Origin: a virus
Lineage: Duplodnaviria > Caudoviricetes
Virus record (IMG/VR): IMGVR_UViG_3300027804_002812
Span: 262,292 to 326,291 of that record
DNA: 64,000 nt
Direction: 5' to 3' (one strand)
In this document: piece after piece, positions 33,097 to 64,000 of the stretch
Numbering within the stretch: the stretch's first letter is position 1
How the letters are laid out: the number at the start of each line of letters is the position of its first letter
The notes under the pieces: model-generated
Seen by the model: only the letters and a program-made list of their open reading frames with translations
What the model was told of the DNA's origin: nothing
Database searches by the model: none
Translations under genes and position numbers: made by a program

Positions 33097-35586
33097 TTAT
33101 GATATCGGTCCGAAGTCGCAATTTACTACAACAGTTATACAAGTAACGTTGGTTGGATTATTCGTATCTCTTAAACCAAAATAAACCGTTCCATTTGGTA
33201 CGTAAAGATAATCTGTTGTATTTCCTTGTAGCGAGTTGAATACCCCGTTCAACGCATCATTACAAGTTGTGTAATATGTGTCTGTCATGTCGTACTGACC
33301 AGATCCGCCAGCAATACCTGTGATGAACACAGAATTAATTCCTCCAAATCCACAAAGTACATTAGATGTTGCGACCAATGGTTTAGACGGGATATTACCT
33401 GTTGAACTAAAGTTCACACTGTTACTATTAATTGTATTTGAAGTTGTGTCAGAAATCACCGTACAACATCTACATCCATTAATACTTGATTGAGTGAACT
33501 GAGCACTAATTTGTTGTTGAAGATTGGTTATGCAGTTGCTTTGAGTGTTAGTTTGTCCACTTGTAATAGACAATACAGAAGTACTGGTGATTAAGACAGG
33601 AGAGTTTATCCCAATCTGTAATTGGTATGTATCCGCATCAGTAACCGCAGTAAATGTTTCAGGGCTACAATTTGGTCTGCTACCAGTCTGAACTACTGTC
33701 TGAGTTGTTGTTGGAGTTTTAGTAACTCCATTCTCAGTGATGGTGAACGTATCATTGATTAATCCAGTACCAGGCCCGTTATAAGTTTTTATGGATGATA
33801 GGGTCAAATTGAATGGTATGGTAACTCCAGGTGGTAATGGTGGAGTACTTACAACTTGATAATATGTTGTATTAGAATTGTAATTACTCAAATTAATAGT
33901 TTGAGTTGCTAACGTATTAGCACTCAAGGACAATTGATAAGTCACCGGTTGTTGTGTAAACCCAACTGTAATACTTTCTATTTCAGTATTACCCGCAGAA
34001 TCTCTTACCGTTATTGTATATGTTCCAGCACACAAGTCTTCAAAAACATTTGTCGACTGATATGTAGATCCTCCATTAATAGAGAATAGATATGGAGGAT
34101 ATCCATATTGAGCGTTGACCGTTATATCACCATCACAATTCACAACACTATCACATGAGTTATTGTTTACAGACAAGGCTACTTGCATTGGTATCACCGA
34201 AGGACAAACACCTTGAGTCATAGTTACACTATATGTATTAACTCCACCAGCAATTACCCATCCTGAAAGTGGAACTGAAGATGAAGATGTACTAATGAAT
34301 ATACCTCCACCTACAGGGTTGAATGGTATTGTCGGATTAGATCCGGTTACTTCCCATCTAGTTAATGTGGAGTTCCAAACAATATTGTATTGGCCATTAT
34401 CAGTTGTCCAAGTTGTTCGACCATTTCTCATTCCATTGCAGTTAAATTGTAACGGACCATAAGCGGTTGAAGTACTTAAAGCAATTAAACACAATTGAGG
34501 ACAAACTCCTGATGGAGTAACTGTTGGTGTTGCAGTTGGACTCGGAGTAATAGTTGCAGTTGGAGGAAACAAACTACAAACAGTATTTGCGGTATAATCT
34601 CCATAATAATCGACAACAGTTACTTGATAATTTCCTTGTGGTATGCCAACCAAAGTTTGTGTTCTTTGTCCTCCATCCCAATAAATAGAATAAGGACTTG
34701 TACCTCCAGTGATTTTCAAAGATAAAATTCCATCCAAAGAACTTGAAGAACTTGGCATTGATATAGGAAAACAAGTTACACCCATATCAAAAAGAGTGAA
34801 TACTTCACAATCATTCTTTAATCTCACCACCGCTTCATTTGTTGGTGTCTGAGTTGGAGTTTTAGTTACAGATGGAGTTAATGAACTTGTCGGAGTTATG
34901 GTTGGAGTTGCAGTATTAGTTGGCGTTAAAGTCGGAGTTTGTGTAGGTGTTGGAGTTGGACAAGTGACTGAAGCAGTTATATTTAATTTTACAACACCAT
35001 TCGATGGCTTAGTATAATCCATTGTTATGGATAGTCCACTCTGAGTTCCTTGTTGGAAGTTACCACAACAGTCGGTATAAAAATAACTCGAACCTGGATT
35101 GACTAATGTGTATGCCTGTCCACATAAAATTGGCGTTGGTGATGGTGTCGCATTTGGAGTCCTTGTTTGGGTTGGTGTTACCGTTGGAGAAGAGGTAATC
35201 GTTGGAGTTGGTCTTGGAGTCCTTGTTGGTGTTACACTAGGTGTTTGAGTTGGAGTGTTAGATGGAGTATTAGTTGGTGTTGAGGTTTGACTTGGTGTGA
35301 CAGAAGGATAACAACTCGAATCATCCGTACATTCATTACCAGTGTCTGTGACGGTGATACCGTCAATTACTTCAATTTCCCCAAAGAAACCATATTTGAA
35401 AGTTGGAGTGTTAGATAAAAATGAACAAATATAAAATGCAAATCCTCCCGAAATATTTACAGTCGGAATAGTTGCAGTGTTCGTATTTTGAGTCGCCCCA
35501 TTACAGTCGGTATAGACAACATACAATTGTTGACCTCCACTGGTGGACAATTCAAATGGGACTTCAATGTAAAAACAAGTACACAT
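33097..35586 (-). CDS. Fibre-like protein: Cys modules, Thr-Pro linkers and two SprB-type repeats
   Basis: GGTSPYSIYWDGG..TQTLVGIPQGNYQVTVVD and GYPPYLFSINGG..YQ..NVFEDLCAGTYTITVRD; (TP)n tracts. Confidence 0.7.
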   Translation of the reverse strand: MCTCFYIEVPFELSTSGGQQLYVVYTDCNGATQNTNTATIPTVNISGGFAFYICSFLSNTPTFKYGFFGEIEVIDGITVTDTGNECTDDSSCYPSVTPSQTSTPTNTPSNTPTQTPSVTPTRTPRPTPTITSSPTVTPTQTRTPNATPSPTPILCGQAYTLVNPGSSYFYTDCCGNFQQGTQSGLSITMDYTKPSNGVVKLNITASVTCPTPTPTQTPTLTPTNTATPTITPTSSLTPSVTKTPTQTPTNEAVVRLKNDCEVFTLFDMGVTCFPISMPSSSSSLDGILSLKITGGTSPYSIYWDGGQRTQTLVGIPQGNYQVTVVDYYGDYTANTVCSLFPPTATITPSPTATPTVTPSGVCPQLCLIALSTSTAYGPLQFNCNGMRNGRTTWTTDNGQYNIVWNSTLTRWEVTGSNPTIPFNPVGGGIFISTSSSSVPLSGWVIAGGVNTYSVTMTQGVCPSVIPMQVALSVNNNSCDSVVNCDGDITVNAQYGYPPYLFSINGGSTYQSTNVFEDLCAGTYTITVRDSAGNTEIESITVGFTQQPVTYQLSLSANTLATQTINLSNYNSNTTYYQVVSTPPLPPGVTIPFNLTLSSIKTYNGPGTGLINDTFTITENGVTKTPTTTQTVVQTGSRPNCSPETFTAVTDADTYQLQIGINSPVLITSTSVLSITSGQTNTQSNCITNLQQQISAQFTQSSINGCRCCTVISDTTSNTINSNSVNFSSTGNIPSKPLVATSNVLCGFGGINSVFITGIAGGSGQYDMTDTYYTTCNDALNGVFNSLQGNTTDYLYVPNGTVYFGLRDTNNPTNVTCITVVVNCDFGPIS

Positions 35587-35649
35587 CTAGTAATTTATTA
35601 TATCTTATAATTATAAGAACTCACAATATTTTGTATACATTTGTGAAGT

Positions 35650-36297
35650 TTATGGACACGCAACAAAACTTGTTATAGTCCCGCTAGTATCCACTTGTAC
35701 AGCATAATTATTTCCTCCGAAAGTGAATTTTGTGAATCTATTGTTTCCGTTATATGGATTAAATAATGCCCCACCAAATGCCGTTTGATAAATTTTCACA
35801 CCAATTACAGGAATTGTATTCGCCTCATTGATGAAAGTATAATAATTAACCGAAGTAAATGTATCACTACAAGTGTTAGCAGAAGTCGGAAATGTATTCT
35901 GTCCGACCAAATGAAGTGAAAATACTGGTGTTACCGATGGAGTCGGAGTAAATGTTGGTGTAGTTGTTGGAGTTGATGTTTGTGTTGGACTTACTGTTGG
36001 AGTATTCGTTTGAGTTTGAGTTGTAGTTGGTGTTTGAGTTGGTGTTAGAGTCGGTGACGCGGTAATACTTGGTGTCGGAGTTGGTGTGATAAAAATAACC
36101 TCCCCATCAACACACCCATTGTTGTCCTCAATTTTTATTACAATGTTAGTCTCATCATAAGGTGGTGGGACTGTAAAAGTGTAAGGAAAAACCGAAACAG
36201 TTGCAACAGACACACAACTTCCACTCGAAGAATTACAATAGAAAATGTCGACTGGTGTATTTGCAGTTACTGAAGTTATTGTTACTTGTTGACTCAT
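35650..36297 (-). CDS. Two-domain virion-like protein with Thr-Pro linker
   Basis: Likely start MSQQVTI at 36297; N-domain paralogous to that of 36315-37739. Confidence 0.7.
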   Translation of the reverse strand: MSQQVTITSVTANTPVDIFYCNSSSGSCVSVATVSVFPYTFTVPPPYDETNIVIKIEDNNGCVDGEVIFITPTPTPSITASPTLTPTQTPTTTQTQTNTPTVSPTQTSTPTTTPTFTPTPSVTPVFSLHLVGQNTFPTSANTCSDTFTSVNYYTFINEANTIPVIGVKIYQTAFGGALFNPYNGNNRFTKFTFGGNNYAVQVDTSGTITSFVACP

Positions 36298-36314
36298 GTT
36301 AATATAATTAATAT

Positions 36315-37739
36315 TTAAGTTGAGGTTGGTGTTGGAGTATACGTCGGAGTTGTGGTTGGCGTTGGTGTCGGATAAGGACAATTTAATAATGTTCCGAATG
36401 GACTCAAGAATGCTATATCATTAACATTAACTCCATTATATTGTGAAAATTCTCCAAAAACAATGTGTACCCCATTATTCAATATAATACCGGTGTTAAA
36501 AGAATTTCCTGAATAAGCTAAACCAGTTCCATAATCAAACGTGTTATCAATGCTTCCATTTTGATTTAGTCGTACTAAACCATTAGCGGACACACCACTG
36601 TAAGTATCAAAGTCACCAATAACAAAATATTTGTTATTATATTTCAAAATAGTTGTCGAATATGTTAGTCCACTGAATCGATTAAATCCAGGTCCAGAAT
36701 TGAATGTCCCATCAATCGAACCGTCAGTATTTAATCTTACAATTTGTCGATTTGTTTGTCCACTATATTCAAAAAATGCCCCTACTGCAAGTATTTTACC
36801 CTCATCAAGTACACCTGAATAGACTGTTCCATTAAATCCAGTCCCACTACTAAATGTATTATCAACAGATCCATCATCATTCAATCTAACAATTCGAACA
36901 TGGGAGTTCCCATTTACAGTTGTAAAATCACCAAGGATTATTTTTTTCCCATCACTTTGTAAAATAATATCGAAAACCTGTCCATTCAATCCAAGTCCTG
37001 TATTGAATGAATTATCAACACTTCCATCACTGTTTAACCTGATTAAATTTGAATGTGGATTTCCATTATATTGTGTGTAATTCCCACCGACTAATATTTT
37101 ACCATTCGTTTGAACTTTAATAACCCAAACCGTATTATTAAATCCAGTACCGGCACTAAAAGTATTATCAATCGATCCATTAGTATTCAACCTGATAATC
37201 TTTCCGTTGGATGCTCCACTGTAAGAACTAAAAAATCCTCCGACCATTATTTTGCCGTCAGCCTGTAATTCTATGTCATACACTGCATCGTTAAATCCTG
37301 TACCTATATTAAATGTATTATCAATACTTACATCACTGTTAACCCTTACAATTCTATTGAAAGATTGTCCACTATAACTAGTGAAAAGTCCTCCAAAAAT
37401 AATTCTACCACTACTATCTTCAACCGCAGCTTCAGCTTGGTCGTTGAACCCTCCATTAAAACTATAACAATAGTTCCAAGGGGTTGAACTTGGAGTTGGT
37501 GTTGGTGTTACAGAATAATTTACCGAACTTGTTCCGGATATGATACAATTGTTTGCATCAATTGCCTTTATCATATAATTCGCAGATGTGTCGTAAGGTA
37601 CTGGTATATCAAACACATATGGAAATGATGAATCCGTAATTGTTGATATATAAAAACAACCAGATCCGTCGACTTGACAAACATAAATGTCATATGGGGT
37701 TTGTCCTGAAATATCGTTTATAGTTACTTGTACTGCCAT
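36315..37739 (-). CDS. Delta-60 repeat seven-bladed beta-propeller protein
   Basis: Seven units of the type LQ.DGKI.VGG.F..Y.G.....I.RLN.DGS.D.TF..G.GFN; (TP)n flanks. Confidence 0.85.
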   Translation of the reverse strand: MAVQVTINDISGQTPYDIYVCQVDGSGCFYISTITDSSFPYVFDIPVPYDTSANYMIKAIDANNCIISGTSSVNYSVTPTPTPSSTPWNYCYSFNGGFNDQAEAAVEDSSGRIIFGGLFTSYSGQSFNRIVRVNSDVSIDNTFNIGTGFNDAVYDIELQADGKIMVGGFFSSYSGASNGKIIRLNTNGSIDNTFSAGTGFNNTVWVIKVQTNGKILVGGNYTQYNGNPHSNLIRLNSDGSVDNSFNTGLGLNGQVFDIILQSDGKKIILGDFTTVNGNSHVRIVRLNDDGSVDNTFSSGTGFNGTVYSGVLDEGKILAVGAFFEYSGQTNRQIVRLNTDGSIDGTFNSGPGFNRFSGLTYSTTILKYNNKYFVIGDFDTYSGVSANGLVRLNQNGSIDNTFDYGTGLAYSGNSFNTGIILNNGVHIVFGEFSQYNGVNVNDIAFLSPFGTLLNCPYPTPTPTTTPTYTPTPTST

Positions 37740-37752
37740 ATTAATATTTTAT

Positions 37753-40700
37753 TTAACATTGTGTTGATGATAATCCGATTACAACTCCCGATCCATTCAA
37801 GTCCCAATTCGCTCCTTGGTGGAATACATATATTTGACTAACCACTGTTGTTAAAGTTGAATCTGTATATAATATACATCCAGCGCTAATTGTTTGGCAA
37901 TTCGAATACAATGTTTTCGGATTAATAATAGCGTCAGAACAAGCATCAAACACACTTATGTCACTCACACCACTGTTTCCAAATGCCCCAATGTTTCCTG
38001 TAGCACAAGTCTCACAATTAGAATAAGTTTGACTCGGAACCCCTGTGAAATAATTCCCTCCAAAGTTTATCGGTGTAACTTTTGGTGATGGTATATAGGA
38101 TGTATTAAACTGTCCAACAAAGTACCAACAATTTCCGTCATTATCTTTGAATGTTTCATTCACTGCAATTGGGAAAGATATTGGTTGAGTTTGAATAACT
38201 TGAGTTATTGTTCCTCTTCCTCCGCCGATACGATTACAAGATTGATAAACGTATAGGTAGTTAGGAGTTGCCGATGGTGACGCAGTTATAGATGGTGTTG
38301 GAGTGTTTGTAGCGGTTGGAGTTCTAGTTTGAGTTGGTGTAGGTGGAGGTGTGGTTCCAACGGTTGCCGTCTGAGACGGTGTCGCGGTTTGTGTTGCAGT
38401 TACACTTGGCGTAATACCCGCAGTTGATGTTGGAGTGTTAGTCGGTGTTGATGTCGTAGTTGGTGTAGGTGTTGGAACATTACTACAGAATTCACATGAA
38501 GAATAAATTTGTACAATACTTCCAAGAGTACTATTAGATGACAAGTTACTATCATCTCTCGTATATACAACACAACGATTTACTCCGTTAACTTGTACAA
38601 ACATTGTCATACCAATTGATACAGGTGTACCCGCAAATGATAATGAATCTGTGGTATAGAATTCTTCACCCGTATTACATTCAGTCAATACTTTTACAGA
38701 TACACAACTGAATGTTTCATCTAACATTTCAAATGTTACATTACCTCCAATAGACACTGTTCTTGTAAGTGTCACCGAAGGAGTCAAGGTTACAGTTGGT
38801 GTCGTAGAAGTATAACCACTTAATGTAAAGTTTATTCCAACTCCACTACAGAAGTTACCTGTTGGAGATGGTGTTGGAGTAACACCGAATGAGCTTATTG
38901 TGAAATTAACATCATTACAACCAATACTCGGAGTTGGAGTAACTGGTGGAACGTAAGCACAATCGAAATACGCATTGAAATCAAATGTTGAACAATCAAC
39001 TCCAGTAGGTGTTGGAGTTGGACAAATCCCGCCATTGAAATCATTTGCAGATATATCAGGACATTGCGAATAACATGGGTAAGAACCTCTTAATAAACAA
39101 GTTCCTCCTGGAGTTGCTCCACTAGCTAAACACCAGTAATCACCAGTATAATAGATAACCGCTGAAGTTATTCCATCTCCAGAATAATAAATTCTTGAAT
39201 TATATGTTCCGGCAGATTCATAGTTTCCATTGTATCCTGAAAAAGAAGGTAAAGTTGTATAGAAACAAAAATCAGTGAATGCACATGCTGAAGGTGAAGG
39301 TGATACGGTTGGTGTTTGAGTCGGAGTCGGTTGTGGTGTGTTAGTTGGCGTTGGAGTCGGAACACAGAATGAACAATCATCAAAATCGGGGTCACCGAAG
39401 TCAGGGCCACCAGGTCCAGATAATTCAACAAAACTATAACACTCACCGTTGTAAAGATAAGCGGCTCCAACAAATGCAGTATCCTCATTTACATTAGCGT
39501 AGAAAACATCCCCATTTGAACACTTGGTTAATAATGCAGCAGTCACAGCTGTTCTTGGACACAGAGAATCCGCACATGTTGGAACTTGTGTAAATGTAAC
39601 ACCAAGGGAGTTATATATCGTACCGACAGTAAATCCACTTACGATTGTGGCACATCCTTCGAATTCAACACTACCAGTAATATAGTAAGTGTTTCCAATT
39701 ACAGTAGGAATACTTGGTCCTCCGAATCTGAATATGTTTGAACCATTTGTACAATCTTGAAATTGTACAACAATACTATTCGTTGGCGTCGGTGTTTGTG
39801 TTTGTGTTGGAGTCTGTGTTGAAGTATTAGTTGGAGTTTGAGTCTGTGTTGAAGTATTAGTTGGAGTTTGAGTCTGTGTTGAAGTATTAGTTGGAGTTTG
39901 AGTCTGTGTTGAAGTATTAGTTGGAGTTTGAGTCTGTGTTGAAGTATTGGTAGGAGTATTCGTTGGAGTTTGAGTCTGTGTTGAAGTATTGGTAGGAGTA
40001 TTCGTTGGAGTCTCGGTAGGAGTCACAGTAGGCGTGTTTGTGGGTGTTTCAGATGGAGTTTGTGTTGGAGTTTGTGTTGGTGTTTCAGTATTAGTCGCCG
40101 TCTGAGTTGGTGTCTCAGTCGGAGTATTAGTTGGAGTCTCACTCGGAGTGTTTGTCGGTGTCTCTGTTGGAGTTGGTGTCTGAGTTTCTGTCGCAGTAGG
40201 CGTTAATCCAACCGTAGCTGTGGGGGTCGAAGTTTCAGTTGGAGTCGGAGTTTGAGTTGGCGTCTCTGTAGGGGTTTCTGTTTGTGTTGCGGTTGGGGTT
40301 GGGGTCAATCCTTCAAAACATCCACCGCAGAAACTTTCATCAACTTGAATAATAGTCAATCCAACCGATGCCGTAACACTCCCTAAAATTGCACAGAAAT
40401 ATCCTGTACCACCAGGATATGGAACGTTAGTTATAGATTGAGAAACGTGATTACAATTCAAATAAGTTATTGTATTAACACCAGAAGGATCTCCATCATT
40501 CGTATATTGATAACAAACACATCCATCCGCAGAAGGTGTTATTGTGGGAGTTGCGGTAATTGTGGGAGTAGGACTTGGAGTTTCACTTGGTGTTACTGGC
40601 GGAGTTTCAGTTGGAGTTGGTGTAGTTCCGACTGTTGCCGTTGGAGTTGGGGTCACGGACAAACAACACTCAGTTAAAGTTTGACTGACTGTAGAAACAG

Positions 40701-40947
40701 GCCCAACTATTTGAGTATTATTTTTATAGTAATAAATGTTAGGTGAAGGAGAACCTGTAGTATCAATACAAAGGTCATTCAAAAATGTACCCGAAAGTGT
40801 ATAAAGTTCTTGTTGTGAGTTTCCACTACAATCAATATAATCGACGTATACTGTGCCATCAAACTTACCAGGGTCGGTATTCCCCGTTGAGTCATCCAAA
40901 TCTAATTGGTCGATAATTACATCATAATAGAAACACGTACACGCCAT
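37753..40947 (-). CDS. Large mucin-like virion protein: Cys modules joined by long Thr-Pro linkers
   Basis: 1064 aa; repeated Y/F.DC.G modules; T/P/Q/E/N/S tract at about residues 217-389; TATTTATA 18 nt upstream. Confidence 0.75.
39811..40011. repeat. Coding tandem repeat: four perfect 30-nt units plus about two 42-nt units
   Basis: AGTCTGTGTTGAAGTATTAGTTGGAGTTTG at 39811, 39841, 39871 and 39901, then a 42-nt variant twice; encodes [10 protein letters not shown]. Confidence 0.95.
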
Positions 40948-40965: not shown

Positions 40966-41053
40966 TATAAATAACCAGACATCAGGTTTTTATACATCCA
41001 ATAATATAGTTTTGTTGAAAACTAAATAAAGTAGTATCTCGATAATATTTATA
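40966..41053. promoter_or_regulatory. Divergent TATTTATA motifs serving the fibre operon (-) and the glycosyltransferase operon (+)
   Basis: - strand TATTTATA at 40966-40973; + strand TATTTATA at 41046-41053, 5 nt before ATG 41059. Confidence 0.55.
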
Positions 41054-41058: not shown

Positions 41059-41229
41059 ATGAAACTTCTAAACACAATTCAAAATATTATTAAAGAGGCT
41101 GAAGAACAATATAACAATGCCTGTGATTCATGTGTCCCTGTTGAAGAATTGGACAGACTTGAAAAACGCTACAAAGATTCCCTCAAACTACTGAAGTTAT
41201 ACCAGTCTGAAGAAAAAAAGAAACAATAA
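41059..41229 (+). CDS. Small 56-aa protein with CxxC
   Basis: Below cutoff: MKLLNTIQNIIKEAEEQYNNACDSCVPVEELDRLEKRYKDSLKLLKLYQSEEKKKQ*. Confidence 0.65.
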   Translation: MKLLNTIQNIIKEAEEQYNNACDSCVPVEELDRLEKRYKDSLKLLKLYQSEEKKKQ

Positions 41230-51757: not shown

Positions 51758-51764
51758 GTTTTTA

Positions 51765-55128: not shown

Positions 55129-55164
55129 GTTTTAATAATAAAATAATTTGATTAAAAATCAAAT

Positions 55165-55281
55165 TTAATGGTTGTAAATAAAAGGGTCTCTCTTTTTCAA
55201 CTCTTCAATTTTCTTTTTTAATTCTTTTTTCCTTTTGCGGTCTTTAATTTTTTTCAAAAACCAGTCAATAATTTTCTTCAT
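55165..55281 (-). CDS. Small basic 38-aa 'KRDPFIY' protein
   Basis: MKKIIDWFLKKIKDRKRKKELKKKIEELKKRDPFIYNH*; start overlaps the carbamoyltransferase stop (ATGA). Confidence 0.7.
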   Translation of the reverse strand: MKKIIDWFLKKIKDRKRKKELKKKIEELKKRDPFIYNH

Positions 55282-56945
55282 AGTATTTTGTGTATTATAT
55301 AATTATCTAAAACTAACAAGTCCAAGTCAGTATCCTTGAAAGTTTCTATTGCATTAAACGGATTCAGTACCATTGTTTTATCTTTAACGTTGAATGATGT
55401 ATTCAATATAATTGGATACCCACTTAGTTTTTCAAACTCAATTAATAAGTCGTGAATAACAGTATTTTCATATACAGTTTGAATTCTTGACGTTCCGTCC
55501 ACGTGAACAACTGCCGATAATTTATCTGCGTATTCTTCTCTAACTTTAACAATTTGATTCATGTATGGTACATCATCAATTGTGTAGAAAAACTCATTCT
55601 GTTTCTCTTTAATAACCATAGGGGCAAAAGGACGAAACCCCTCTCTTTTCTTAATCAATTTATTAATTCTGGATTTCATATCGGGTACAGTAGGGTCGGC
55701 TAAAATAGACCTGTGTCCTAATGCTCTTGCTCCGAATTCGATTCTATCTCTATACCACCCAACTACTTTACCTTCATGGATTTTTTTGGCTACGTATTTT
55801 ATTAATATATTGTAATCGTGAATTTCAAAAAAGTTCAAATTTTTAATGTGACCCATATAAAATTCAACATCATACTTTGGTCCCAAAAAAGGATTCTTGG
55901 TAACTCTTTTTGTTAATTTTTTATTTTGTACAAGGTAATGAATACAAGCTCCAACACAGGATCCAGCATCAGATGGTGCGACTGGTATCCAAATTTTTTC
56001 AAACTCAGAATTGGATACTATCTTCCCATTCGCAGTACCATTGTACGCCGAACCACCTCCTAAGCAAAGATTATTACTACCAAGATTTTTCAAACTTTTG
56101 ATAATATCAAATAAAACTTCTTCGTATCTTAGTTGAACTGCCGCTGCTAAATTTTGATGAATTGTAGTAATTTCTTCTTCAGTTAATCTTGGTGAAATAC
56201 CTAAATGTTCTATTAGTTTTTCGTTGAACATCAATTTTTCTGACTTATCCCAACAAAAAACATCCATATCACAGATTAATTCTCCATCTTTGAATTCTAT
56301 TAAACTTCTAATTTTTTCAATATACTCTTTAGGGTCTCCGTATGACGCTAATCCCATTAATTTATATTCTCCTTCATTTGGTTTGAATCCCAAATACGAA
56401 GTCATTGTAGAATAATAAAGTCCTAATGAATGTGGATATTTACCCAAATCATGATATTCAATTCCATCATTATCCGCCAAACCAAAAGATAATGTGTCAA
56501 TTTCACCAACACCATCAATAGATAAACAGATTGCCCTTTCAAAATCGGAAGTGAAAAAAGAATAATACTGATGTGCCAAATGGTGTTCGGAGTAAAATAC
56601 TCTTCCCTTAAATGGCTTCAAATGTTTATTTACATCTGATATATTTTTTAAGATTTTAACTAAAGATTTCAAAGAATATTTCGGTGACGTAAAAAAGTTT
56701 TTCTTGATGTTACTCAATACTCTTTTTAGTTTCAGATTGAGGTCTTCATAATAACAAACCATTTCAATATCATCATAGGTTATGTTATAATATCCGAAAA
56801 TATGTTGAATCGTATTAATTGGAAAAGAACTGTCGTGTTTGATTCCCGTAAATTTTTCCTCTTCACAAGCAAACACCAACTCCCCGTTTTTGAATAGACA
56901 GGCGGATGAATCGTGATAAAAGGATGAAATGCCAAGTACGTACAT
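55278..56945 (-). CDS. NodU/CmcH-family carbamoyltransferase
   Basis: LGISSFYHDSSACL, EEEKF, HHLAH, DGVGE, SLGLYY, GEYKLMGLASYG, EFGARALGHRSILADP, FRPFAP, LNTSFN. Confidence 0.95.
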   Translation of the reverse strand: MYVLGISSFYHDSSACLFKNGELVFACEEEKFTGIKHDSSFPINTIQHIFGYYNITYDDIEMVCYYEDLNLKLKRVLSNIKKNFFTSPKYSLKSLVKILKNISDVNKHLKPFKGRVFYSEHHLAHQYYSFFTSDFERAICLSIDGVGEIDTLSFGLADNDGIEYHDLGKYPHSLGLYYSTMTSYLGFKPNEGEYKLMGLASYGDPKEYIEKIRSLIEFKDGELICDMDVFCWDKSEKLMFNEKLIEHLGISPRLTEEEITTIHQNLAAAVQLRYEEVLFDIIKSLKNLGSNNLCLGGGSAYNGTANGKIVSNSEFEKIWIPVAPSDAGSCVGACIHYLVQNKKLTKRVTKNPFLGPKYDVEFYMGHIKNLNFFEIHDYNILIKYVAKKIHEGKVVGWYRDRIEFGARALGHRSILADPTVPDMKSRINKLIKKREGFRPFAPMVIKEKQNEFFYTIDDVPYMNQIVKVREEYADKLSAVVHVDGTSRIQTVYENTVIHDLLIEFEKLSGYPIILNTSFNVKDKTMVLNPFNAIETFKDTDLDLLVLDNYIIHKIL

Positions 56946-57472
56946 TATGAATTATATTTTTCAGGATATTCGTTAATTAAGGTTATCCCTCCCTCATTTA
57001 TTGCATGGTCATAAGCGTTTTTAACATCATCCGCAGTCAAACAATCAAAAAATTTTATTGTTTGAGTTATTGACTGAAACTCTTTGAAATAATTATTTCT
57101 GTGTTGAGGGCCTGGATTCAAAGGTATTTCCGATCCTTTACCAACTCTAATAATCATATTTGGTTTCCACTGACCATTGCTCATTAATTCCATCTTATCA
57201 ACATGGTTTATTAATTGATTAGCCGCACAAATCAAAAAGTCCCATCTCGGATAAAATGTAATCACAAATTTTCCTGTCATTGCAATACCCAAAGACATTC
57301 CCATTTGAGAATCTTCCATCACCGGTAATTCAACCATTTTTTCTTTTGGAACATCGACCAAAGTTGAACTCATCGGGTTTCCCGGAAATAATATCTGTTG
57401 TCCAAGAAAAATAGTATCATCCATTTTTCCTAACTTGGTCATTGCGATTGTTAATGAATCTTTGTATTCCAT
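56945..57472 (-). CDS. TPP-dependent E1-beta/transketolase pyrimidine-binding domain (no C-terminal domain)
   Basis: IFLGQ, ELPVME..QMGMSLG.AM.G, DFLICA.NQL.NH, GPQH; only 175 aa. Confidence 0.8.
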   Translation of the reverse strand: MEYKDSLTIAMTKLGKMDDTIFLGQQILFPGNPMSSTLVDVPKEKMVELPVMEDSQMGMSLGIAMTGKFVITFYPRWDFLICAANQLINHVDKMELMSNGQWKPNMIIRVGKGSEIPLNPGPQHRNNYFKEFQSITQTIKFFDCLTADDVKNAYDHAINEGGITLINEYPEKYNS

Positions 57473-58668
57473 TATATTAAACTTTTGAAAAACTTATAAT
57501 CAGTTTCATCTTGTAATATACTCGTAACTTTTTTCTTATTAAGTTCAAATCTTTCCTGATTATTTTTATAAAAATTAATTATTTCGTCTTTGATAGAATT
57601 TAATCTTTTCACTTCATCAACAAACATAAAAAGCCGTTTTCTCGGGTCTTTTTCATTGTCATAAGAATAATCAATAATATCATCAAACAAATCAAAATCA
57701 TATCTTTCTTTCAAGAACTTATTATGTTCAAAATTAGCCAATATCAAAGGAATTTGAGAATAATAAATTGGCATCAATGATTTTTCTGTAATATGGATTA
57801 CATCTGTGGATATGTAACCAGTTTCGGTAACAATATTAACATATGAATTTCTATAAGGATTCATTTCATATGTTTTATAAAAGTCAATGAAGTAAGGTGG
57901 CTGGTCAACTCTATAATCTTCTTCAAACCTACTTTTTTTAATCCCTGATTTTTGAAGAAACAATATTTCATTATAATATTCTTTGAAATCGTCCCTATCA
58001 AAAACTTCAAAAAATAAGTTGTATGATGGTGTTCCATCTGGATCAGAGAATCGTTCGTTTAATTCATTACCTCGTAACATCGTCCAATCAACTTCATCTA
58101 ATATCCCTTCTCGTTTCAGTAAAGCTAACAGAGACACTCTATGTGGTTTTAACATTCTGTTATAACACATAAAAAATGATTCTTTATCTTTTTGAAATTC
58201 GTACTTGAATGAGGTCATTCCTTCGACCGCCACATAAGGTAATCTATTTGAAGTATGTCCAACAACTTTACTATTCAACTCATTGATTAATTTTTTTATT
58301 TTCTGATTTCCATTGATTGCAATTATCTGATTCGAATTAATCGATTCTTCATTACAATATTTTTCGATAAGTTTTATTACGTTTCCATTGTCGGACTCAT
58401 GTTCCGCTAAAATAACAAGAAAACAATTGGAGTATAATTTCATTAACTCTTTTACTTTTGAGGATGCAGGAAGTGATTGGAAATTTTCCATATAAGTTCC
58501 TGTTATTGTAAATGAATAATATTTTTGTTCGGAGTCAACCTCAAAATTATTTATATCAATCATTTTAATCCCGTCAACTTTGTTAGCGGTCAAAGTGTTA
58601 AAAATATGTTCCTTTTCGTTTTCGATATTACTATCAAACAATAAATTAAAATACTTCATAATCTTCAA
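57472..58668 (-). CDS. Putative GT-B glycosyltransferase (GT10-like TEK motif)
   Basis: YNR..KPHR..LL; YVNIVTET...ITEKSLMPI...IPLIL; FDLFDDIIDYSYD. Confidence 0.5.
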   Translation of the reverse strand: MKIMKYFNLLFDSNIENEKEHIFNTLTANKVDGIKMIDINNFEVDSEQKYYSFTITGTYMENFQSLPASSKVKELMKLYSNCFLVILAEHESDNGNVIKLIEKYCNEESINSNQIIAINGNQKIKKLINELNSKVVGHTSNRLPYVAVEGMTSFKYEFQKDKESFFMCYNRMLKPHRVSLLALLKREGILDEVDWTMLRGNELNERFSDPDGTPSYNLFFEVFDRDDFKEYYNEILFLQKSGIKKSRFEEDYRVDQPPYFIDFYKTYEMNPYRNSYVNIVTETGYISTDVIHITEKSLMPIYYSQIPLILANFEHNKFLKERYDFDLFDDIIDYSYDNEKDPRKRLFMFVDEVKRLNSIKDEIINFYKNNQERFELNKKKVTSILQDETDYKFFKSLI

Positions 58669-59298
58669 TTAAAATACAACCCACTTACCTGTTCCATAAT
58701 GAGGCCAATGTTTTTCATACTCGTAGTAAACTACTTCATTAGGTATTTCCTCTTTTTTGCCCCATGTTTCGATTGTTGGAGTATTTGTAGAAACTCCATT
58801 ATCTTCAACAACAAATCTAACAGGTAATTCAAAGTTTTTTATATATTTGTAGTTTTCCATAAAAGTACCTGTCTCAAAAGTCATGTCCCCAATAAAACAC
58901 CAAACAATTTCATTCTTATTATCTCGTTTATTAGACATTGCAACGCCAGTAGCAATTGGAATTATTCCACCGACAATCGCCGAACTATAGAATTTTTTTT
59001 CTTTATTGATGATACTAATCGATCTCCCATCCAAAATTTCTGATTCTAACCAATCAGGTGATACTCCTTTAAGTAAAGCATGATAATGAGACCTCCATGT
59101 AGAAAATACCCAATCATTCTCTGAAATTCTTTTGAAGATTTCAATAAGATGTTTTTCATTACCTCCACTCAAATGAACAGGGCCTCGTATTTTACCAGTT
59201 TCCCAACTTTCAACTATTTTATTTTCAAAATGAATAAGTTCTTCTTCATTCCAGTTGTGTTCTCTAACTATTGGATACTGTTCTAAATTTTTTATCAT
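58669..59298 (-). CDS. TPP-dependent E1-alpha-like subunit (short)
   Basis: GPVHLSGGNE, STWRSHYH, SAIVGG, GDMTFETG...EDNG TPP-binding motif; 209 aa. Confidence 0.85.
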   Translation of the reverse strand: MIKNLEQYPIVREHNWNEEELIHFENKIVESWETGKIRGPVHLSGGNEKHLIEIFKRISENDWVFSTWRSHYHALLKGVSPDWLESEILDGRSISIINKEKKFYSSAIVGGIIPIATGVAMSNKRDNKNEIVWCFIGDMTFETGTFMENYKYIKNFELPVRFVVEDNGVSTNTPTIETWGKKEEIPNEVVYYEYEKHWPHYGTGKWVVF

Positions 59299-59312
59299 AT
59301 ATTTTAATAAAA

Positions 59313-59924
59313 TTACTTGTTAAAGGATACTATACTAAACCTTGGCGTTTTCGCATAACTTTCAACTGAACTTACAAAATGAGGTTGTCTGAAAACTTTA
59401 TTATTCAATAATACTACTCTATTGAATTTAGGAAAAATTTGTTGGTTAAACTCTTCATCTGCTTCAGAACAAATGTTAAGAATACCACCCCAATCCCAAA
59501 TCCACTCTTTATTTACGTAATAGATTAAATTAATTTTTCCTGCATAGTCATCCATGTGCATTCTGTAATGGTCTCCACTATCAAGTTTATAACATCTTAT
59601 GTCAAACTGATTCAAGATAAATGGTGATACTTTTTCAAGGGCATCAATAAAGTAATCTTCGAATATTTTCGATATGTAATCATCTTTCTCCAAATCAGAT
59701 GACCTACTGAAACTAGAAGTATAAACCTCGGTTTCTTTTGGTAATGTTGATGACTCAGTTTTGAATACATGCGAATAATGATTTTCTCTTTCCTGTAAAG
59801 TTTTTTCCCACGTGTTCGCATTAACAAATAACTCATGTAAATTATTTGCATAATCATTGGGTAAAAAATTATCGATTACAGAATATCCCTGTTCGTTCAG
59901 TTCCTGTTTAACTCTATCTAACAT
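59313..59924 (-). CDS. 2OG-Fe(II) oxygenase (EGLN/prolyl-3-hydroxylase-like)
   Basis: HMD...[14 protein letters not shown]...PKFNR...HFVS...RFS. Confidence 0.88.
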
Positions 59925-59934
59925 ATTAACTTAG

Positions 59935-60342
59935 TTACTCCCAACTAATACCCCAATCCTTAAACTCCGCAGCCAAACAATCAGTTTTATAGTCTTTTCT
60001 ACCACCTACAATTTCTTGTATTCTATTTTTTGCAGTATTACGAACTCCATTTAATCCATGTGTCAACTCCAAATTATTACCTTCTTTGATTCCCTTACGA
60101 TAGTTGGACTCATTATGCCAAATGTGTAAGTTTGTTTGAGCTAAAACAACAATAGACCTTACGGTCTTTGCATCAATAACACCTTTCTGTTCTTTAAGAA
60201 TCAAATCAATGTCGTGTTCGATGTCTCTAATTTCTTGAGCATATTCCTCTTTGTGTTCGGGAATAAAAACTTCTTTTAATTGTGAAATACTGAGTCTATC
60301 AATTAACTCGGCAAGTGTTGGTAAGTATTTTCTCTTCTCCAT
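59935..60342 (-). CDS. Conserved helical protein of sugar-biosynthesis clusters (DUF6165-like)
   Basis: PTLAELIDRLSI.QLK...N..IW..E...R....N..RN..KN.I pattern. Confidence 0.6.
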   Translation of the reverse strand: MEKRKYLPTLAELIDRLSISQLKEVFIPEHKEEYAQEIRDIEHDIDLILKEQKGVIDAKTVRSIVVLAQTNLHIWHNESNYRKGIKEGNNLELTHGLNGVRNTAKNRIQEIVGGRKDYKTDCLAAEFKDWGISWE

Positions 60343-60343
60343 A

Positions 60344-61351
60344 TTATCTGTTCAAAAATTTTCTTCCTTTATTTATTCTTTCTCTCCAATATTCTAATAG
60401 GTCATCCATTGTTTGATTGAAGGTTATTTTGGGTTCCCATCCAGTCATTTCTCTGAATTTAGTTGTGTCAGGTATTTGTAAATCCGCATCTATGGGCCGT
60501 AATCTATTTTGGTCAACTACTACTTCTATATTCTTAACCGTAGATTTTGATAATAGATAATTCAACGTATCACCAACTTTACAAGTATAAGACCCCCCAA
60601 TATTATAATATGCACCTGCAGATGGATTAATATTTAATAACATCCAGTATGCTCTGACAGCATCCCTAACATCGGCGTATGTCCTAAGTGAGTCCAAATT
60701 ACCCACAAATATTTTTGGTTCTTGTAATCCATATTCTATCATTGCGATTTGTTTTGCAAATGTTGATTCATGAAATACATCTCCTCTTCTCGGTCCTGTA
60801 TGTGTAAACATTCTGGTAGTCATCACCTTCATGTTATAAGCTTCCCCATAATACCGACCAATCAAATCTGTACCCACTTTAGATATCGCATACGGAGATG
60901 CAGGATGTAACGAGCACTCCTCATTGATGGGTAATTTATCTTTACTAACCCTACCAAAAATTTCGCTTGATGCACACACATGTATAAGAGCATCTTTATA
61001 CTGAGATTTTCTAAGCGCTTCTAATAAATTTGCGGTACCAATTATATTTGTTTGTAATGTTTCAATCGGAGAATCAAAACTAGTTTGTGGATAGGATTGT
61101 GCTCCAAGGTGGAAAACATAGTCAGGTTTAGAAATATCTATCGCGTTTACAATTGAACTATAGTCATTCAAATCTCCATATATCAACTTAATTCTATCTG
61201 TGGTATTAATGATATCAGTTAAATGTTCGATGTTATCCATAGATTCATTCCACCTACAAAACCCATAGATTTTTATAGTTGTTTTTTCTAAAAGAAAATC
61301 AACCATGTGAGATCCGACCATCCCTAAAACACCTGTGATTAATACATTCAT
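60344..61351 (-). CDS. gmd: GDP-mannose 4,6-dehydratase family
   Basis: LITGVLGMVGSH, HLGAQS, SSEIFG, SPYAISK, FTHTGPRRG.VF, RDAVRAY, LRPID. Confidence 0.85.
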   Translation of the reverse strand: MNVLITGVLGMVGSHMVDFLLEKTTIKIYGFCRWNESMDNIEHLTDIINTTDRIKLIYGDLNDYSSIVNAIDISKPDYVFHLGAQSYPQTSFDSPIETLQTNIIGTANLLEALRKSQYKDALIHVCASSEIFGRVSKDKLPINEECSLHPASPYAISKVGTDLIGRYYGEAYNMKVMTTRMFTHTGPRRGDVFHESTFAKQIAMIEYGLQEPKIFVGNLDSLRTYADVRDAVRAYWMLLNINPSAGAYYNIGGSYTCKVGDTLNYLLSKSTVKNIEVVVDQNRLRPIDADLQIPDTTKFREMTGWEPKITFNQTMDDLLEYWRERINKGRKFLNR

Positions 61352-62523
61352 TGATATATTTCTTTGAAGATTTTTTCAGTTATCCTCCAGTTATCCTGCA
61401 ATTCAAAAGATCCGGCATAATTACTATCAAAGTCCCTAAGTAGAATGTTATATTCATCTTTGTTTTCTTCGATTATCGTTTTTAATTGATTTGGAATATA
61501 CTCATCATTATAAACAATTGCCGTCGCCGTGTCAATATTTGACTGTGATAAACCCATCACGCTATCTCGGACTTCCCCAAAATTTTTGTTTTTTATCGAG
61601 TACAGATTATCAATTATCCCAAAACATCTTGAAGAGATTAAACTAGCCTTATCAAATTCATAATCAAAAATATCCCCATATAATCCAAAATTATACTTAT
61701 ATAAATTGGTATTTTGACCTTTAGCACCTAATACTAAAAAAGGTTTACCGAATAAAATACTCTTAAATGTTTTTTCAGTATGGAACATAAACTCTTTAGT
61801 CAATTCAGGAAATTCATGATTGTACGCAAGGTATGGGTAGGTTTCCGCTACAACATCAATTAAATTAGGTGCATTTAGTATTTTTTCCGAAAATATACGT
61901 TGGGGAACGTCGTCAGATTTATCATAAAAATCATCGAATGATAACTTCCTCGGTGTGAAATACTTGAAATCCCATCGAGAGAATTCAGAATGTTGCCATG
62001 TATTTATTCCATAATCAAATAGTTCAAATTTATATAAATAATCCAATAATATCGCCCTATGGTTCCTTTCATGGTTATTTAGATTTAGATAAAGTTTATC
62101 GATTGGTCTATATTGATTGAATAATTCAGAAGGTTTTTTACCATAAAAATTAACCATCCCATAAAAAGTGTAATGGAGTAATGCGGTAGGCCAAAACAAA
62201 ACTTCAAAGTTTTTGATTGGATTTGTTTTAATATTCGAATATGCATCACTGTAATCACAACCAACAAGTAGATAAAACTTAATATTATTTTTTAATAAAG
62301 TATCTTCTAAATTTTGATAATCTTCAGAATGATTTGGATTATTTACGTAATCGTGTGTGAGATAACTCAAAAATCTTTCATCAAACGCTTCCCAAGGTTG
62401 CCAAATTATAGCATGACTTTCAGGTTTTATTTTATCTATCAATTCACTAATCTCTCTCACATTAATAGAACTATTAGACGGATTGATTAACAAAACACTT
62501 TTATGGAACCTATAATCGATCAT
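61348..62523 (-). CDS. Putative GT-B glycosyltransferase (GT10-like TEK motif), paralogue of 57472-58668
   Basis: LNN..RNHR..LL; IDVVAET...HTEKTFKSI..GKPFLVLG; FGLYGDIFDYEFD. Confidence 0.5.
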   Translation of the reverse strand: MIDYRFHKSVLLINPSNSSINVREISELIDKIKPESHAIIWQPWEAFDERFLSYLTHDYVNNPNHSEDYQNLEDTLLKNNIKFYLLVGCDYSDAYSNIKTNPIKNFEVLFWPTALLHYTFYGMVNFYGKKPSELFNQYRPIDKLYLNLNNHERNHRAILLDYLYKFELFDYGINTWQHSEFSRWDFKYFTPRKLSFDDFYDKSDDVPQRIFSEKILNAPNLIDVVAETYPYLAYNHEFPELTKEFMFHTEKTFKSILFGKPFLVLGAKGQNTNLYKYNFGLYGDIFDYEFDKASLISSRCFGIIDNLYSIKNKNFGEVRDSVMGLSQSNIDTATAIVYNDEYIPNQLKTIIEENKDEYNILLRDFDSNYAGSFELQDNWRITEKIFKEIYQ

Positions 62524-63469
62524 GGCCCTTAAACCAATTAATTGTTTCAGTTATCCCTTGTTTGAAAGTATAAGTTGGCACAAATCCGATCTCAGTATTT
62601 ATTCTCTCCGTACTCACCGCTCTGAAAGGAATTGTCGTTGGCTTAGAATCGTCCCAAATTACATCAGGTTTTAATTCACTTACTTCTATAATTGTATCAA
62701 CAATTTCACCAATAGTAATACCTCCACCATATCCCAAATTATAAGGTCTCATGGATTCTCCCTTCTCAATAATCAAAAGGCCACCTTTAACTACGTCTTT
62801 AACATATAGAAAATCTCTAACAATATCAGGTGACCCCCACACTACAAATGGATTTTCACCACTTAATAATCTTTTAATTAATGCAGGCACAACATGACAG
62901 GTTTTCAAATCGAAGTTATCATAAGGTCCAAATATCGCAGTACCTCTTGCAATACAAATTTCCATTTCACCTAATCGTGAAACGTGTTCCATCAACTTCT
63001 CTCGATATCTCCTCATCCATCCATACCCATAGTAAGATTTATAAGGTTCATCCACCCAAAACTCATCTTCGGTTAGTGGTCTTCTGATGTCAGGATATCC
63101 TGTAGAACTATTAAGATCTAAAAATCTTTTTACTTTTGATTTGTACGATGCTTCCAATACATTTCCAATTATTTGGATTTGTTTCAATGAAATTTGTACA
63201 TCAGTTGGTACTGTGGAAGGATGAGCAATTTGTCCCGCACAATGAATTACATAATCACAACCTTCAACAAGCTTGAAACAATCTTCTAACTTTGTTAGGT
63301 CTAAATTTTCATGAACAATGATACTATCATGCGTATATTGTAATGGAGATTTGTGAGTATGAGTAATAACTTTCGCACCTTGTTTGACAAGTTCAATTAA
63401 ATAATGAGTACCTATGAATCCGGATCCGCCAGTTACTACAACCTTTTTACCTTTGAAAAATTCACTCAT
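62510..63469 (-). CDS. GDP-L-fucose-synthase-like extended SDR (epimerase/reductase)
   Basis: VTGGSGFIG, HCAG, FGPYDNF....HVVPALI, VWG...RDFLYV; the YxxxK position reads YGWMR. Confidence 0.8.
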   Translation of the reverse strand: MSEFFKGKKVVVTGGSGFIGTHYLIELVKQGAKVITHTHKSPLQYTHDSIIVHENLDLTKLEDCFKLVEGCDYVIHCAGQIAHPSTVPTDVQISLKQIQIIGNVLEASYKSKVKRFLDLNSSTGYPDIRRPLTEDEFWVDEPYKSYYGYGWMRRYREKLMEHVSRLGEMEICIARGTAIFGPYDNFDLKTCHVVPALIKRLLSGENPFVVWGSPDIVRDFLYVKDVVKGGLLIIEKGESMRPYNLGYGGGITIGEIVDTIIEVSELKPDVIWDDSKPTTIPFRAVSTERINTEIGFVPTYTFKQGITETINWFKGHDRL

Positions 63470-63470
63470 A

Positions 63471-64000
63471 TCAATGGTTCACAAATGGATTATATCGTTT
63501 ATCTAAAATGTCTTTGTTGTTCAAAAACCACTCTGTAGTTTTTTTAACACCCTCTTCCAATGAAGTATAACTTTTGAACCCATATTTATTCATCTTATTC
63601 ATACTCATCAATCTTTGTTTATCACCACTCGGTACATCGGTATACCACTTAACATCAATGTCTTTTCCTGAATGTTTGATGACTAATTCAACAAGTTCTT
63701 TAATTGAATTACCTTCTCCCGAACCCAAGTTAACAGGTTCAGTAATTTTATTTTCAACAGTAAAAATCATACCTTCAGCAACATCTTCAGCATAAATAAA
63801 ATCACGAATTGGAGACCCATCTCCAAAAACATCTAAAACATCGTTCTCCTGAGCTTTACGTATCAATGAAGGTACAACCATTGCATTAGCAGGATTAAAG
63901 TTGTCATACGGTCCATAAACGTTTGCAGGTCTAACTATTGATATCCTATCCCACCCGTATTGTTTTTTATAGGTTTCAGTTTGTAATTCTCCAATTCTTT
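63471..64000 (-). CDS. Second GDP-L-fucose-synthase-like SDR (5' end outside window)
   Basis: Frame is open to the window edge: KRIGELQ...VRPANVYGPYDNF...VVPSLI...VFGDGSPIRDFIYAEDVA...VNLGSG. Confidence 0.85.
   Translation of the reverse strand, partial: RIGELQTETYKKQYGWDRISIVRPANVYGPYDNFNPANAMVVPSLIRKAQENDVLDVFGDGSPIRDFIYAEDVAEGMIFTVENKITEPVNLGSGEGNSIKELVELVIKHSGKDIDVKWYTDVPSGDKQRLMSMNKMNKYGFKSYTSLEEGVKKTTEWFLNNKDILDKRYNPFVNH

Follow-up and report, generated by a model that had tools for sequence, protein, structure and literature searches.

Enzymes of the TibC/Aah (BAHT) family are protein O-heptosyltransferases, and every characterised member acts on bacterial adhesins; the activity of TibC needs Asp110, Lys230, Trp305 and Cys339/342/358/370 (PMC4358343). 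Autonomous, virus-encoded glycosylation, including that of fibrils, has been described in giant viruses, with the Mimivirus fibril clusters and A064R of chlorovirus PBCV-1 as examples (PMC9614988). For phages, the glycosylation of mycobacteriophage virions is the precedent, as cited from Freeman et al. 2023 in two other papers (ref 80 in PMC12582341 and ref 45 in PMC12619734), and core glycosyltransferases (GTs) have been listed without an assigned function in large aquatic phages (PMC12619734). Here we describe a TibC/Aah-type enzyme and the sugar genes around it in a tailed phage, found in the last 64 kb (hereafter the window, numbered from its first letter) of the 326,291-bp IMG/VR virus record IMGVR_UViG_3300027804_002812. 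Since the enzyme and the sugar genes lie between Ser/Thr-rich fibre-like genes, the phage probably sugar-coats its own fibres.

The locus resembles the mycobacteriophage system in that phage GTs would modify structural proteins of the virion in the cytoplasm, and in that GT genes lie beside structural genes. That system reportedly comprises few GTs, which act on C-terminal extensions of capsid and tail-tube subunits and use donors made by the host. The phage studied here, in contrast, has a BAHT-type initiator, a block of at least 50 kb with its own nucleotide-sugar and tailoring enzymes, and candidate acceptors of the fibre type. With giant viruses it shares sugar-nucleotide pathways, many soluble GTs and a multi-domain GT+GT+methyltransferase enzyme clustered with surface-fibre genes, the glycans themselves being predicted here. 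The clustering is of the giant-virus type, as nucleotide-sugar synthesis and several GTs lie together and are flanked by Pro/Thr-linker (PT) proteins and by a fibre with collagen repeats and a Peptidase_S74 (S74) domain. The enzyme, a chain of 1210 amino acids (aa) with four activities, is like chlorovirus A064R in its assembly-line logic, with no detectable sequence relationship between the two. Unlike our phage, giant viruses infect eukaryotes, and neither a BAHT initiator nor (GTS)n/PT acceptors are known there. A further parallel is the glycosylation of Gram-positive serine-rich-repeat adhesins (GtfA/B, GlyE), where long Ser/Thr repeats are likewise O-glycosylated stepwise in the cytoplasm. 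GlyE, which as a GT8 lengthens the glycan on a Ser-rich adhesin of pneumococci, is the best structural match (5gvw) of the GT-A domain described below. This match is at the level of the fold, however, with 12% identity, and the phage has no GtfA/B, accessory Sec system or serine-rich-repeat adhesin.

The TibC/Aah-type enzyme and its operon

The 1210-aa enzyme is encoded on the plus strand at 42229–45861 and consists of a methyltransferase, a GT8-like GT-A domain, a GT4 domain and a BAHT domain. Judged by family membership, the C-terminal domain (aa 900–1210; 44926–45861) is a bona fide TibC/Aah-family protein O-glycosyltransferase, in line with the resemblance noted in the original prediction. 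It scored 276.1 bits against the NCBIfam model TIGR04414 ('autotransporter strand-loop-strand O-heptosyltransferase'; cut-off 200) and just 27.8 bits against lipopolysaccharide (LPS) heptosyltransferase I, and it is homologous to TibC (4rb4) over TibC residues 63–386 with an E-value of 3.9e-51. The catalytic Asp and the Thr, Lys and Trp of the sugar site are kept, with D946, T1058, K1062 and W1126 aligning with TibC Asp110, Thr226, Lys230 and Trp305, and the predicted iron finger formed by C1161, C1164, C1180 and C1192 retains the TibC spacing. All eight residues are invariant in 81 phage homologues, which reach down to 36% identity. At the position of TibC Pro300 the phage domain has a Ser, as does Aah. 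Like TibC and Aah, it would belong to a soluble cytoplasmic enzyme that hyper-glycosylates a repetitive protein. Unlike them, it is phage-encoded and fused behind a methyltransferase and two GT domains.

The N-terminal domain (aa 1–170; 42229–42738) is an S-adenosylmethionine (SAM) methyltransferase (PF08241, PF13489). For the middle 510 aa a sequence search of the PDB gave nothing, and this part was resolved by folding alone. The AlphaFold2 (AF2) model, built from a 13-sequence alignment (pLDDT 81), predicts a GT-A fold of the retaining, GT8-like type with a YVDSDS (DxD) motif at 42739–43640, and also holds the N-terminal (Rossmann) half of the GT4 domain. Foldseek returned GlyE (5gvw, E 5.9e-10) as the best match of the model, followed by UGGT and LARGE1. 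The GT-B (GT4-type) domain itself (43690–44913) matched PF13692 (E 1.9e-8) and PF00534 (E 1e-7).

Three further plus-strand genes complete the operon. It is headed by a 56-aa open reading frame (ORF; 41059–41229) that is kept in 13 related loci with a median identity of 77%. A 313-aa GT9-like GT (41283–42224; PF01075, E 4e-12) with an LGD motif and a C-terminal Cys cluster follows; it is a distant paralogue of the BAHT domain (BLASTP E 3e-5) and is present in 24 related loci. Behind the large enzyme lies an FkbM-family methyltransferase (45858–46532; PF05050, E 1e-6), present in 31 related loci.

Neither transmembrane segments nor signal peptides were predicted in any of the 35 proteins of the region, and profile searches found no flippase, polymerase, ligase or polyprenyl-phosphate GT among them. 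This lack of membrane and lipid-carrier parts fits soluble protein glycosylation and not an LPS or capsule pathway, and supports the view that the island is a soluble glycan-synthesis set.

Promoter motif, gene order and candidate acceptors

A Thr/Ser/Pro-rich fibre operon had been predicted back-to-back with the GT operon, both carrying the same motif. All of these elements were found where expected, although 'fibre' is an interpretation of the proteins concerned. The divergent promoter region (40966–41053) holds TATTTATA in gene orientation in both directions, at 40966–40973 on the minus strand and at 41046–41053 on the plus strand. In the window as a whole the motif is not more frequent than chance (11 copies against 8.5 expected). 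Genome-wide, 46 of its 97 copies lie at most 40 nt upstream of a start in gene orientation, mostly at 11–26 nt, in a space that makes up ~2.4% of the two strands; at 11–26 nt upstream of starts it is ~19 times commoner than expected. The genes behind it, many of them structural, include those for the portal, an endolysin-domain protein, an adaptor-like protein, both collagen-like fibres, the 1064-aa PT protein and the 728-aa protein described below, and the 56-aa ORF of the GT operon. We interpret TATTTATA as a late-type promoter, which would place the GT operon in the same temporal class as the structural genes with which it has the motif in common. Its reverse complement, TATAAATA, is the core of the T4 late promoter, but in this phage TATTTATA itself is read in gene orientation.

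The minus-strand operon (33097–40947) encodes four proteins in which small Cys-rich or beta-rich domains are separated by Pro/Thr linkers, and PT tracts of this kind occur in just nine ORFs of the whole 326-kb genome. Its first gene (37753–40947, late motif 19 nt upstream) encodes a candidate O-glycan acceptor, a 1064-aa modular Cys-rich protein with long Pro/Thr linkers (21% Thr, 10% Pro, 44 Cys, and five exact 10-residue repeat units at aa 317–370), which matches phrog_15511 of unknown function (E 6e-25) and has homologues in 12 related loci. The second product, of 474 aa (36315–37739), is composed of a small N-terminal domain, a PT linker, a DUF5122 beta-propeller (PF17164, E 7.8e-71) and a C-terminal PT tail. 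A paralogue of its N-terminal domain is found in the third, a PT-linker protein of ~215 aa (35650–36297); the ORF was called at 35650–36381, but the real start is probably the ATG at 36297, which gives MSQQVTITS..., parallel to MAVQVTIND... of the 474-aa protein. No signal peptide or transmembrane segment was found in the four PT proteins. They are Cys-rich (44 and 29 Cys) all the same, and any disulfides would have to be made once the cell has lysed, or else in a cytoplasm of an unusual kind.

The fourth PT-linker protein, of 829 aa (33097–35586), ends in 490 residues that are predicted to form a chain of Ig-like beta-sandwich domains of the SprB-repeat/Hoc/adhesin type (AF2 pLDDT 72). The top BFVD match of the model was a 'SprB repeat' (E 6.5e-11), and the matches in the PDB were GhpA and adhesins; overall, phage 'SprB repeat' proteins, Hoc, the Aureispira grappling hook and bacterial adhesins matched best. 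Such a chain would fit an extended surface appendage and is a candidate for association with the virion. Its homologues in metagenomes number 327 (E <= 0.001), of which the 120 listed share 62–100% identity, are all hypothetical or unnamed, and conserve the linker residues. The last large gene of the PT cluster, also on the minus strand (30884–33070), has its own late motif at 33075–33082 and encodes a conserved 728-aa viral protein with no match in Pfam, PHROG or phage databases. Neither this protein nor the 1064-aa protein gave a tblastn match in cultured phages.

On its other side the GT operon faces a much longer run of sugar genes. The system had been placed within 33097–64000 of the window, and the elements named were all present there, but these limits cut it: the minus-strand run crosses the contig junction and continues for 32.7 kb, through genome positions 32,736 to 1. 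With 46529–64000 of the window it makes up ~50 kb of genes in one direction (about 15% of the genome), a block that runs convergently into the BAHT operon. The first gene of the block, with TATTTATA 12 nt upstream, is that for a 1706-aa protein with Pfam Collagen repeats (E 2.5e-160), whose 406 triplets are nearly pure Gly-Thr-Ser without Pro or Lys, and with a C-terminal Peptidase_S74 intramolecular-chaperone domain, a hallmark of tail fibres. After it come genes for an Anp1-like GT, a methyltransferase, short-chain dehydrogenases/reductases (SDRs), a GT2, two GT7+LamG fusions and two radical SAM proteins, and further genes for DegT aminotransferases, a UDP-glucose dehydrogenase, a GT25, a DUF5672 protein and a second SGNH protein. 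In the whole system we counted GT-family domains of GT2, GT4, GT7 (two), GT8-like, GT9 (two), GT25 and Anp1 type. The block is thus bounded by the collagen fibre and by the BAHT operon with the PT proteins, with candidate acceptors at both ends. We regard the (Gly-Thr-Ser)n collagen-like fibre and the PT proteins as about equally likely acceptors, the two not being mutually exclusive.

The two GT7+LamG fusions are adjacent (genome positions 20262–23128, or L002:5262–8128, minus strand), and in each a beta-1,4-galactosyltransferase-like GT7 is joined to a LamG/concanavalin-like lectin domain, possibly an acceptor-binding module.

The position of the BAHT gene beside such proteins recurs in other genomes. 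The domain was detected in 222 IMG/VR contigs (60–93% identity) and in four database phages, almost always as the C-terminal module of a multi-GT protein. Four separate lineages (L030, L037, L046 and L053) have the GT operon immediately flanked by divergent PT-protein genes and, on its other side, by a convergent gene for a (G-X-Y)700–955 protein of 2,733–3,195 aa with 47–58% Ser+Thr; this is the topology of the studied phage with the 45 kb in between taken out. Lineages further removed have the BAHT gene on its own, antisense among late genes, with collagen-like tail-fibre genes (PHROG E down to 4e-87) at a distance of one to eight genes. The cultured Microcystis phage Mel-JY01 has it (BAHT 40% identity) behind a (G-T/S-S)n open frame and a Ser-rich protein annotated as structural. 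Of the 38 lineages left after dereplication at 85% identity, 23 have a PT or large Gly/Ser/Thr-rich ORF at most 10 kb from the BAHT gene and 13 have one at most three genes from it, the baseline for the three-gene criterion being about 8.5% of genes in the studied genome.

The collagen-like frame of Mel-JY01 (PP395634.1, 2–3049, plus strand) is unbroken over at least 1016 aa. It overlaps two annotated minus-strand 'hypothetical proteins' (1–651 and 739–2298), in which PVPEL-type repeats resemble antisense shadows, and the annotation there is probably on the wrong strand.

Sugar-nucleotide, tailoring and oxygenase genes

Between 46529 and 64000 all genes are on the minus strand and tightly packed, and they encode soluble sugar-nucleotide and tailoring enzymes. 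The nucleotide-sugar enzymes that had been predicted, one Gmd and two Fcl-like, were all recovered by hidden Markov models (HMMs) as SDRs. The nucleoside diphosphate-sugar 4,6-dehydratase of the Gmd type (60344–61351) matched PF16363 (E 8.5e-77), and TIGR01472 with 176 bits, below the cut-off of 415. A GDP-L-fucose-synthase-like SDR epimerase/reductase (62510–63469) matched PF01370 (E 5e-42), and the Fcl model NF047922 with 124 bits, also below cut-off. The third SDR epimerase/reductase (63471–64000; PF01370, E 1.2e-19) is represented by its C-terminal part, the gene being split by the arbitrary contig break and continuing at the start of the genome. Because the best Gmd and Fcl matches fall below the equivalog cut-offs, we call the donor 'a 6-deoxyhexose nucleotide' and leave GDP-fucose as unproven. 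The only cytidylyltransferase-like ORFs, three of ~140–150 aa, are scattered elsewhere over the genome (positions 213644–213925, 168134–168433 and 260812–260946), and one or another of them might activate a sugar or glycerol phosphate for the glycan.

The expected sugar-decorating enzymes were likewise found by HMM. A thiamine diphosphate (TPP) enzyme pair is made up of an E1-beta/transketolase pyrimidine-binding half (56945–57472; PF02779; pyruvate dehydrogenase E1 beta, E 1.8e-10) and an E1-alpha half (58669–59298; PF00676, E 4e-17; TIGR03182, E 3e-28). At lower window positions lies a NodU/CmcH-type O-carbamoyltransferase (55278–56945; PF16861, E 4e-61; PF02543, E 1e-51; NodU, E 5e-44), and the last gene of the ~50-kb block (46529–47338) encodes an SGNH/GDSL hydrolase-like protein, a possible O-acyl esterase or transferase (PF13472, E 4e-4, below cut-off). 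The FkbM methyltransferase is that of the GT operon.

Two more putative GTs had also been suggested, a 398-aa protein (57472–58668) and its 391-aa paralogue (61348–62523; C-terminal similarity E 2e-5) between the Gmd-like and Fcl-like genes. Both show no more than a GT10-like TEK motif and a sub-threshold Atlas lead (score 0.79–0.80); the former, with ...TE...TEK...P, is a tentative fucosyltransferase-like GT that PF00852 does not reach. The GT10 assignment was therefore not confirmed for either protein. PF00852 matches only another gene of the genome (113,628–114,446), with which the two share just an ...E(T/N)...TEK... motif (BLASTP E > 0.5).

Further genes in this part encode a radical SAM protein of the twitch-domain type with CX3CX2C (47338–48414; PF04055; NF033640, E 1.7e-17, below cut-off), a class I SAM methyltransferase (50568–51170; PF13649, E 3.5e-8), and a 751-aa ATP-grasp/Hint protein with three Hint/intein-type domains (51765–54020; PT-HINT, E 1e-20; Intein_splicing, E 2e-12) that has homologues in 12 related loci. 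A 143-aa ORF (51183–51614) shows SET-domain-like motifs (GIGVFA..., FINSG... and GEELLSNYG). The SET profile touches the genome nowhere else and does so here with E 0.36, below cut-off; the ORF could encode a small viral protein-lysine methyltransferase inside the glycan block.

The several prolyl-hydroxylase-like oxygenases of the original prediction proved to be six 2-oxoglutarate (2OG)-Fe(II) oxygenases, but their likeness to prolyl hydroxylases is at superfamily level (PHD2 and PiuC, E about 5e-5) and two of the six lack HxD. Four small ones (149, 175, 195 and 193 aa) are encoded in tandem at 48472–50571 (PF13640; PiuC, E 5e-5), and the other two at 54616–55128 (HSD...H...RYS; PF13640, E 1.3e-9) and 59313–59924 (HMD...H...RFS; PF13661, E 7e-11; PHD2, E 5e-5). 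Five of the six score above cut-off for PF13640 or PF13661. In a genome-wide family search, in which three of the six scored, PF13640 matches were confined to the island. The HxD...H iron triad together with the 2OG-binding Arg/Lys is present in the four that begin at 48924, 49451, 54616 and 59313, and two of the tandem four thus carry canonical HxD...H...RYS. In those at 48472–48921 and 49990–50571 (minus strand) HLHHN and HQHIQVH stand instead, and these two may be inactive or of altered chemistry. The former also has a weak match to the WelO5 halogenase family (E 2.8e-4).

The phage is known solely from freshwater metagenomes, and near-identical DNA occurs in sequencing runs of 11 studies, most of them labelled freshwater metagenome. 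The record has a CheckV completeness of 100% and a GC content of 33.7%. IMG/VR classes it as 'linear', and its ends overlap by ~130 bp (genome positions 1–131) with at least one mismatch; the sequence therefore closes on itself. Genes of a tailed jumbo phage are present, including those for a portal (phrog_213, E 6e-66), a primase, an SbcC-like nuclease and an exonuclease. By megablast, cultured phages showed no nucleotide similarity to the island. Membership of the moraphages was considered and rejected, as the genome has no HSP70/DnaK, the hallmark used in PMC12619734. The low GC content, the SprB-like repeats and DUF5122 hint at a Bacteroidota host.

Proposed pathway, competing explanations and significance

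From what the sequence shows, namely the homology, the gene order, the promoter motif and a set of enzymes that lacks membrane machinery, we infer an acceptor, a donor and a product, and lean towards late, cytoplasmic O-glycosylation of Ser/Thr-rich virion fibres by a phage-encoded system. As its homology suggests, the BAHT domain would place the first sugar on Ser/Thr of folded or repetitive acceptors in the cytoplasm, and the stand-alone GT9-like protein may join it in this step. The fused GT4 and GT8-like domains, with other soluble GTs, would lengthen the glycan, and the fused methyltransferase and the FkbM methyltransferase would cap it. Donors would be supplied by the convergent minus-strand genes, as 6-deoxyhexose nucleotides made via the Gmd-like and Fcl-like SDRs, and decoration may comprise two-carbon branching by the TPP pair, carbamoylation, acyl handling and methylation. 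To judge from gene order, the acceptors would be, at one end, the PT-linker/Ig-like chain proteins and, at the other, the (Gly-Thr-Ser)406 tail fibre, and the product would be a glycan coat on the virion fibres. Of the coat as originally predicted, the soluble glycan set, the TibC-family domain, the late motif and the conserved position have held up, whereas its acceptor is deduced.

We regard a more far-reaching version as doubtful. In it, at least 50 kb would provide an autonomous fibre 'glycocalyx', with the BAHT-type enzyme initiating dense O-glycosylation of Pro-free (Gly-Thr-Ser)n fibres and PT linkers; the sugars might be structural, some PT prolines might be hydroxylated and glycosylated as in extensins, and the compact cassette would be a widespread enzyme–substrate module of freshwater jumbo phages. 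A structural role for sugars has a parallel in Riftia cuticle collagen, where galactosylated Thr stands in for hydroxyproline in stabilising the triple helix.

Several observations weigh against O-glycosylation of the fibres by this enzyme. The sugar-binding Arg286 of TibC falls in an 8-residue deletion of the phage domain (HMMER alignment), and the alignment starts at TibC residue 63, where the barrel (residues 1–97) is retained in part only and 900 aa of other domains precede it. With Arg286 deleted and most of the N-terminal barrel missing, the donor and the oligomeric state may therefore differ from those of TibC. A family search found no GmhA/SIS_2 for ADP-heptose in the genome, and ADP-heptose could come from the host. 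Known BAHTs act on autotransporter beta-helices, and no autotransporter is encoded by the phage. Complex prediction lent weak support: the BAHT domain with PT-repeat residues 290–400 scored 0.36, against 0.00 for the best control; in calibration 51 of 78 solved and 2 of 108 mismatched pairs reached the mark, with passes at or below 0.60 more often wrong than right. The confident contacts join residues 3–29 of the truncated N-terminal barrel to residues 390–400 of the partner, away from the catalytic cleft, and the runs share only 19–21% of contacts; the prediction is not counted as evidence. The PT proteins match no proven virion protein, the other side of their cluster borders replication genes (primase, exonuclease, SbcC), and the candidate acceptors were assigned from gene order alone. 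In 15 of the 38 lineages, many of them short loci, no PT or large Gly/Ser/Thr-rich ORF lies within 10 kb. Moreover, the lineages are related and cannot be counted as independent in phylogenetic terms, and a single genome supplied the baseline. In two huge phages that have the domain, LR756501 and LR756504, the nearest 12 kb hold no Ser/Thr-rich ORF.

The same genes might instead alter the LPS, capsule or surface glycoproteins of the host, for example against superinfection, a role proposed earlier for 'LPS genes' in marine cyanophages. Aquatic phages often carry sugar-nucleotide genes as auxiliary genes, GT9 and GT25 are best known from LPS core synthesis, and the best NCBIfam matches of the 313-aa GT9-like protein are LPS heptosyltransferases (E about 1e-6, below the cut-offs). 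However, the region has neither membrane-associated or lipid-carrier enzymes nor transmembrane segments, its key domain belongs to a protein-glycosylating family and not to the LPS heptosyltransferases (276 against 27.8 bits), and the GT operon has a late-type promoter in common with structural genes and a conserved adjacency to fibre genes. We thus consider a role at the host surface unlikely. It is quite unlikely, too, that the BAHT-type enzyme glycosylates repeat proteins of the host, such as adhesins, gliding or autotransporter-like proteins, and not those of the phage. All characterised family members do modify bacterial adhesins (PMC4358343), and LR756501 and LR756504, with no fibre-like neighbour, would be compatible with such a target; yet the position beside phage fibre genes recurs in many lineages, and the fusion to extension GTs and a methyltransferase suggests that an elaborate glycan is built.

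Decoration of phage DNA bases with glycans, as a defence against restriction, is very improbable. Phage GTs and dioxygenases reportedly build glycosylated hydroxymethyl-pyrimidines (10.1101/2023.12.21.572611 and PMC13326640). Against this, the oxygenases of the island are of the P4H/PHD type, the only thymidylate-synthase-family (ThyA) gene is 125 kb away, and the BAHT family acts on proteins; no Tet/JBP-type dioxygenase was found in the genome, an absence left unproven by the silence of the same family in all 14 control genomes. A different use of the oxygenases, compatible with sugars on the fibres, would be the hydroxylation of Pro in the PT linkers, with sugars then linked to the hydroxyproline, on the pattern of plant and algal extensins and arabinogalactan proteins. 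The island has six oxygenases of the P4H superfamily, the family search having found PF13640 nowhere else in the genome, four of them with intact HxD...H...R(Y/F)S motifs, and the PT linkers hold hundreds of Pro, with linker residues conserved among homologues. But the similarity to prolyl hydroxylases (E about 5e-5) stops at the superfamily, the triplets of the (GTS)n fibre contain no Pro or Lys, no hydroxyproline-specific GT was recognised, and small 2OG oxygenases with unknown substrates are common in aquatic phages. The hydroxyproline-linked sugars that had been proposed as part of the pathway thus gained no specific support beyond this superfamily membership, and we assign them a low probability.

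O-Glycosylation of the fibres by the phage's own enzymes remains the explanation that we prefer. To our knowledge, a single phage group has been shown to glycosylate its virions with enzymes of its own, which there changes the immune recognition of the particle, and we found no link in the literature between TibC-type enzymes and phages. The question is directly testable, since cultured Mel-JY01 has the same enzyme beside a (GTS)n fibre. If our reading is true, a large and widespread group of freshwater phages glycosylates its virions at a much larger scale, and phages, too, make use of an initiating enzyme family whose known ties had been to bacterial virulence adhesins alone. It would also explain the many 'LPS-like' sugar genes in jumbo aquatic phages and how Pro-free Gly-Thr-Ser collagen-like fibres can be stable, and the island would be a source of a soluble, modular protein-glycosylation toolkit.

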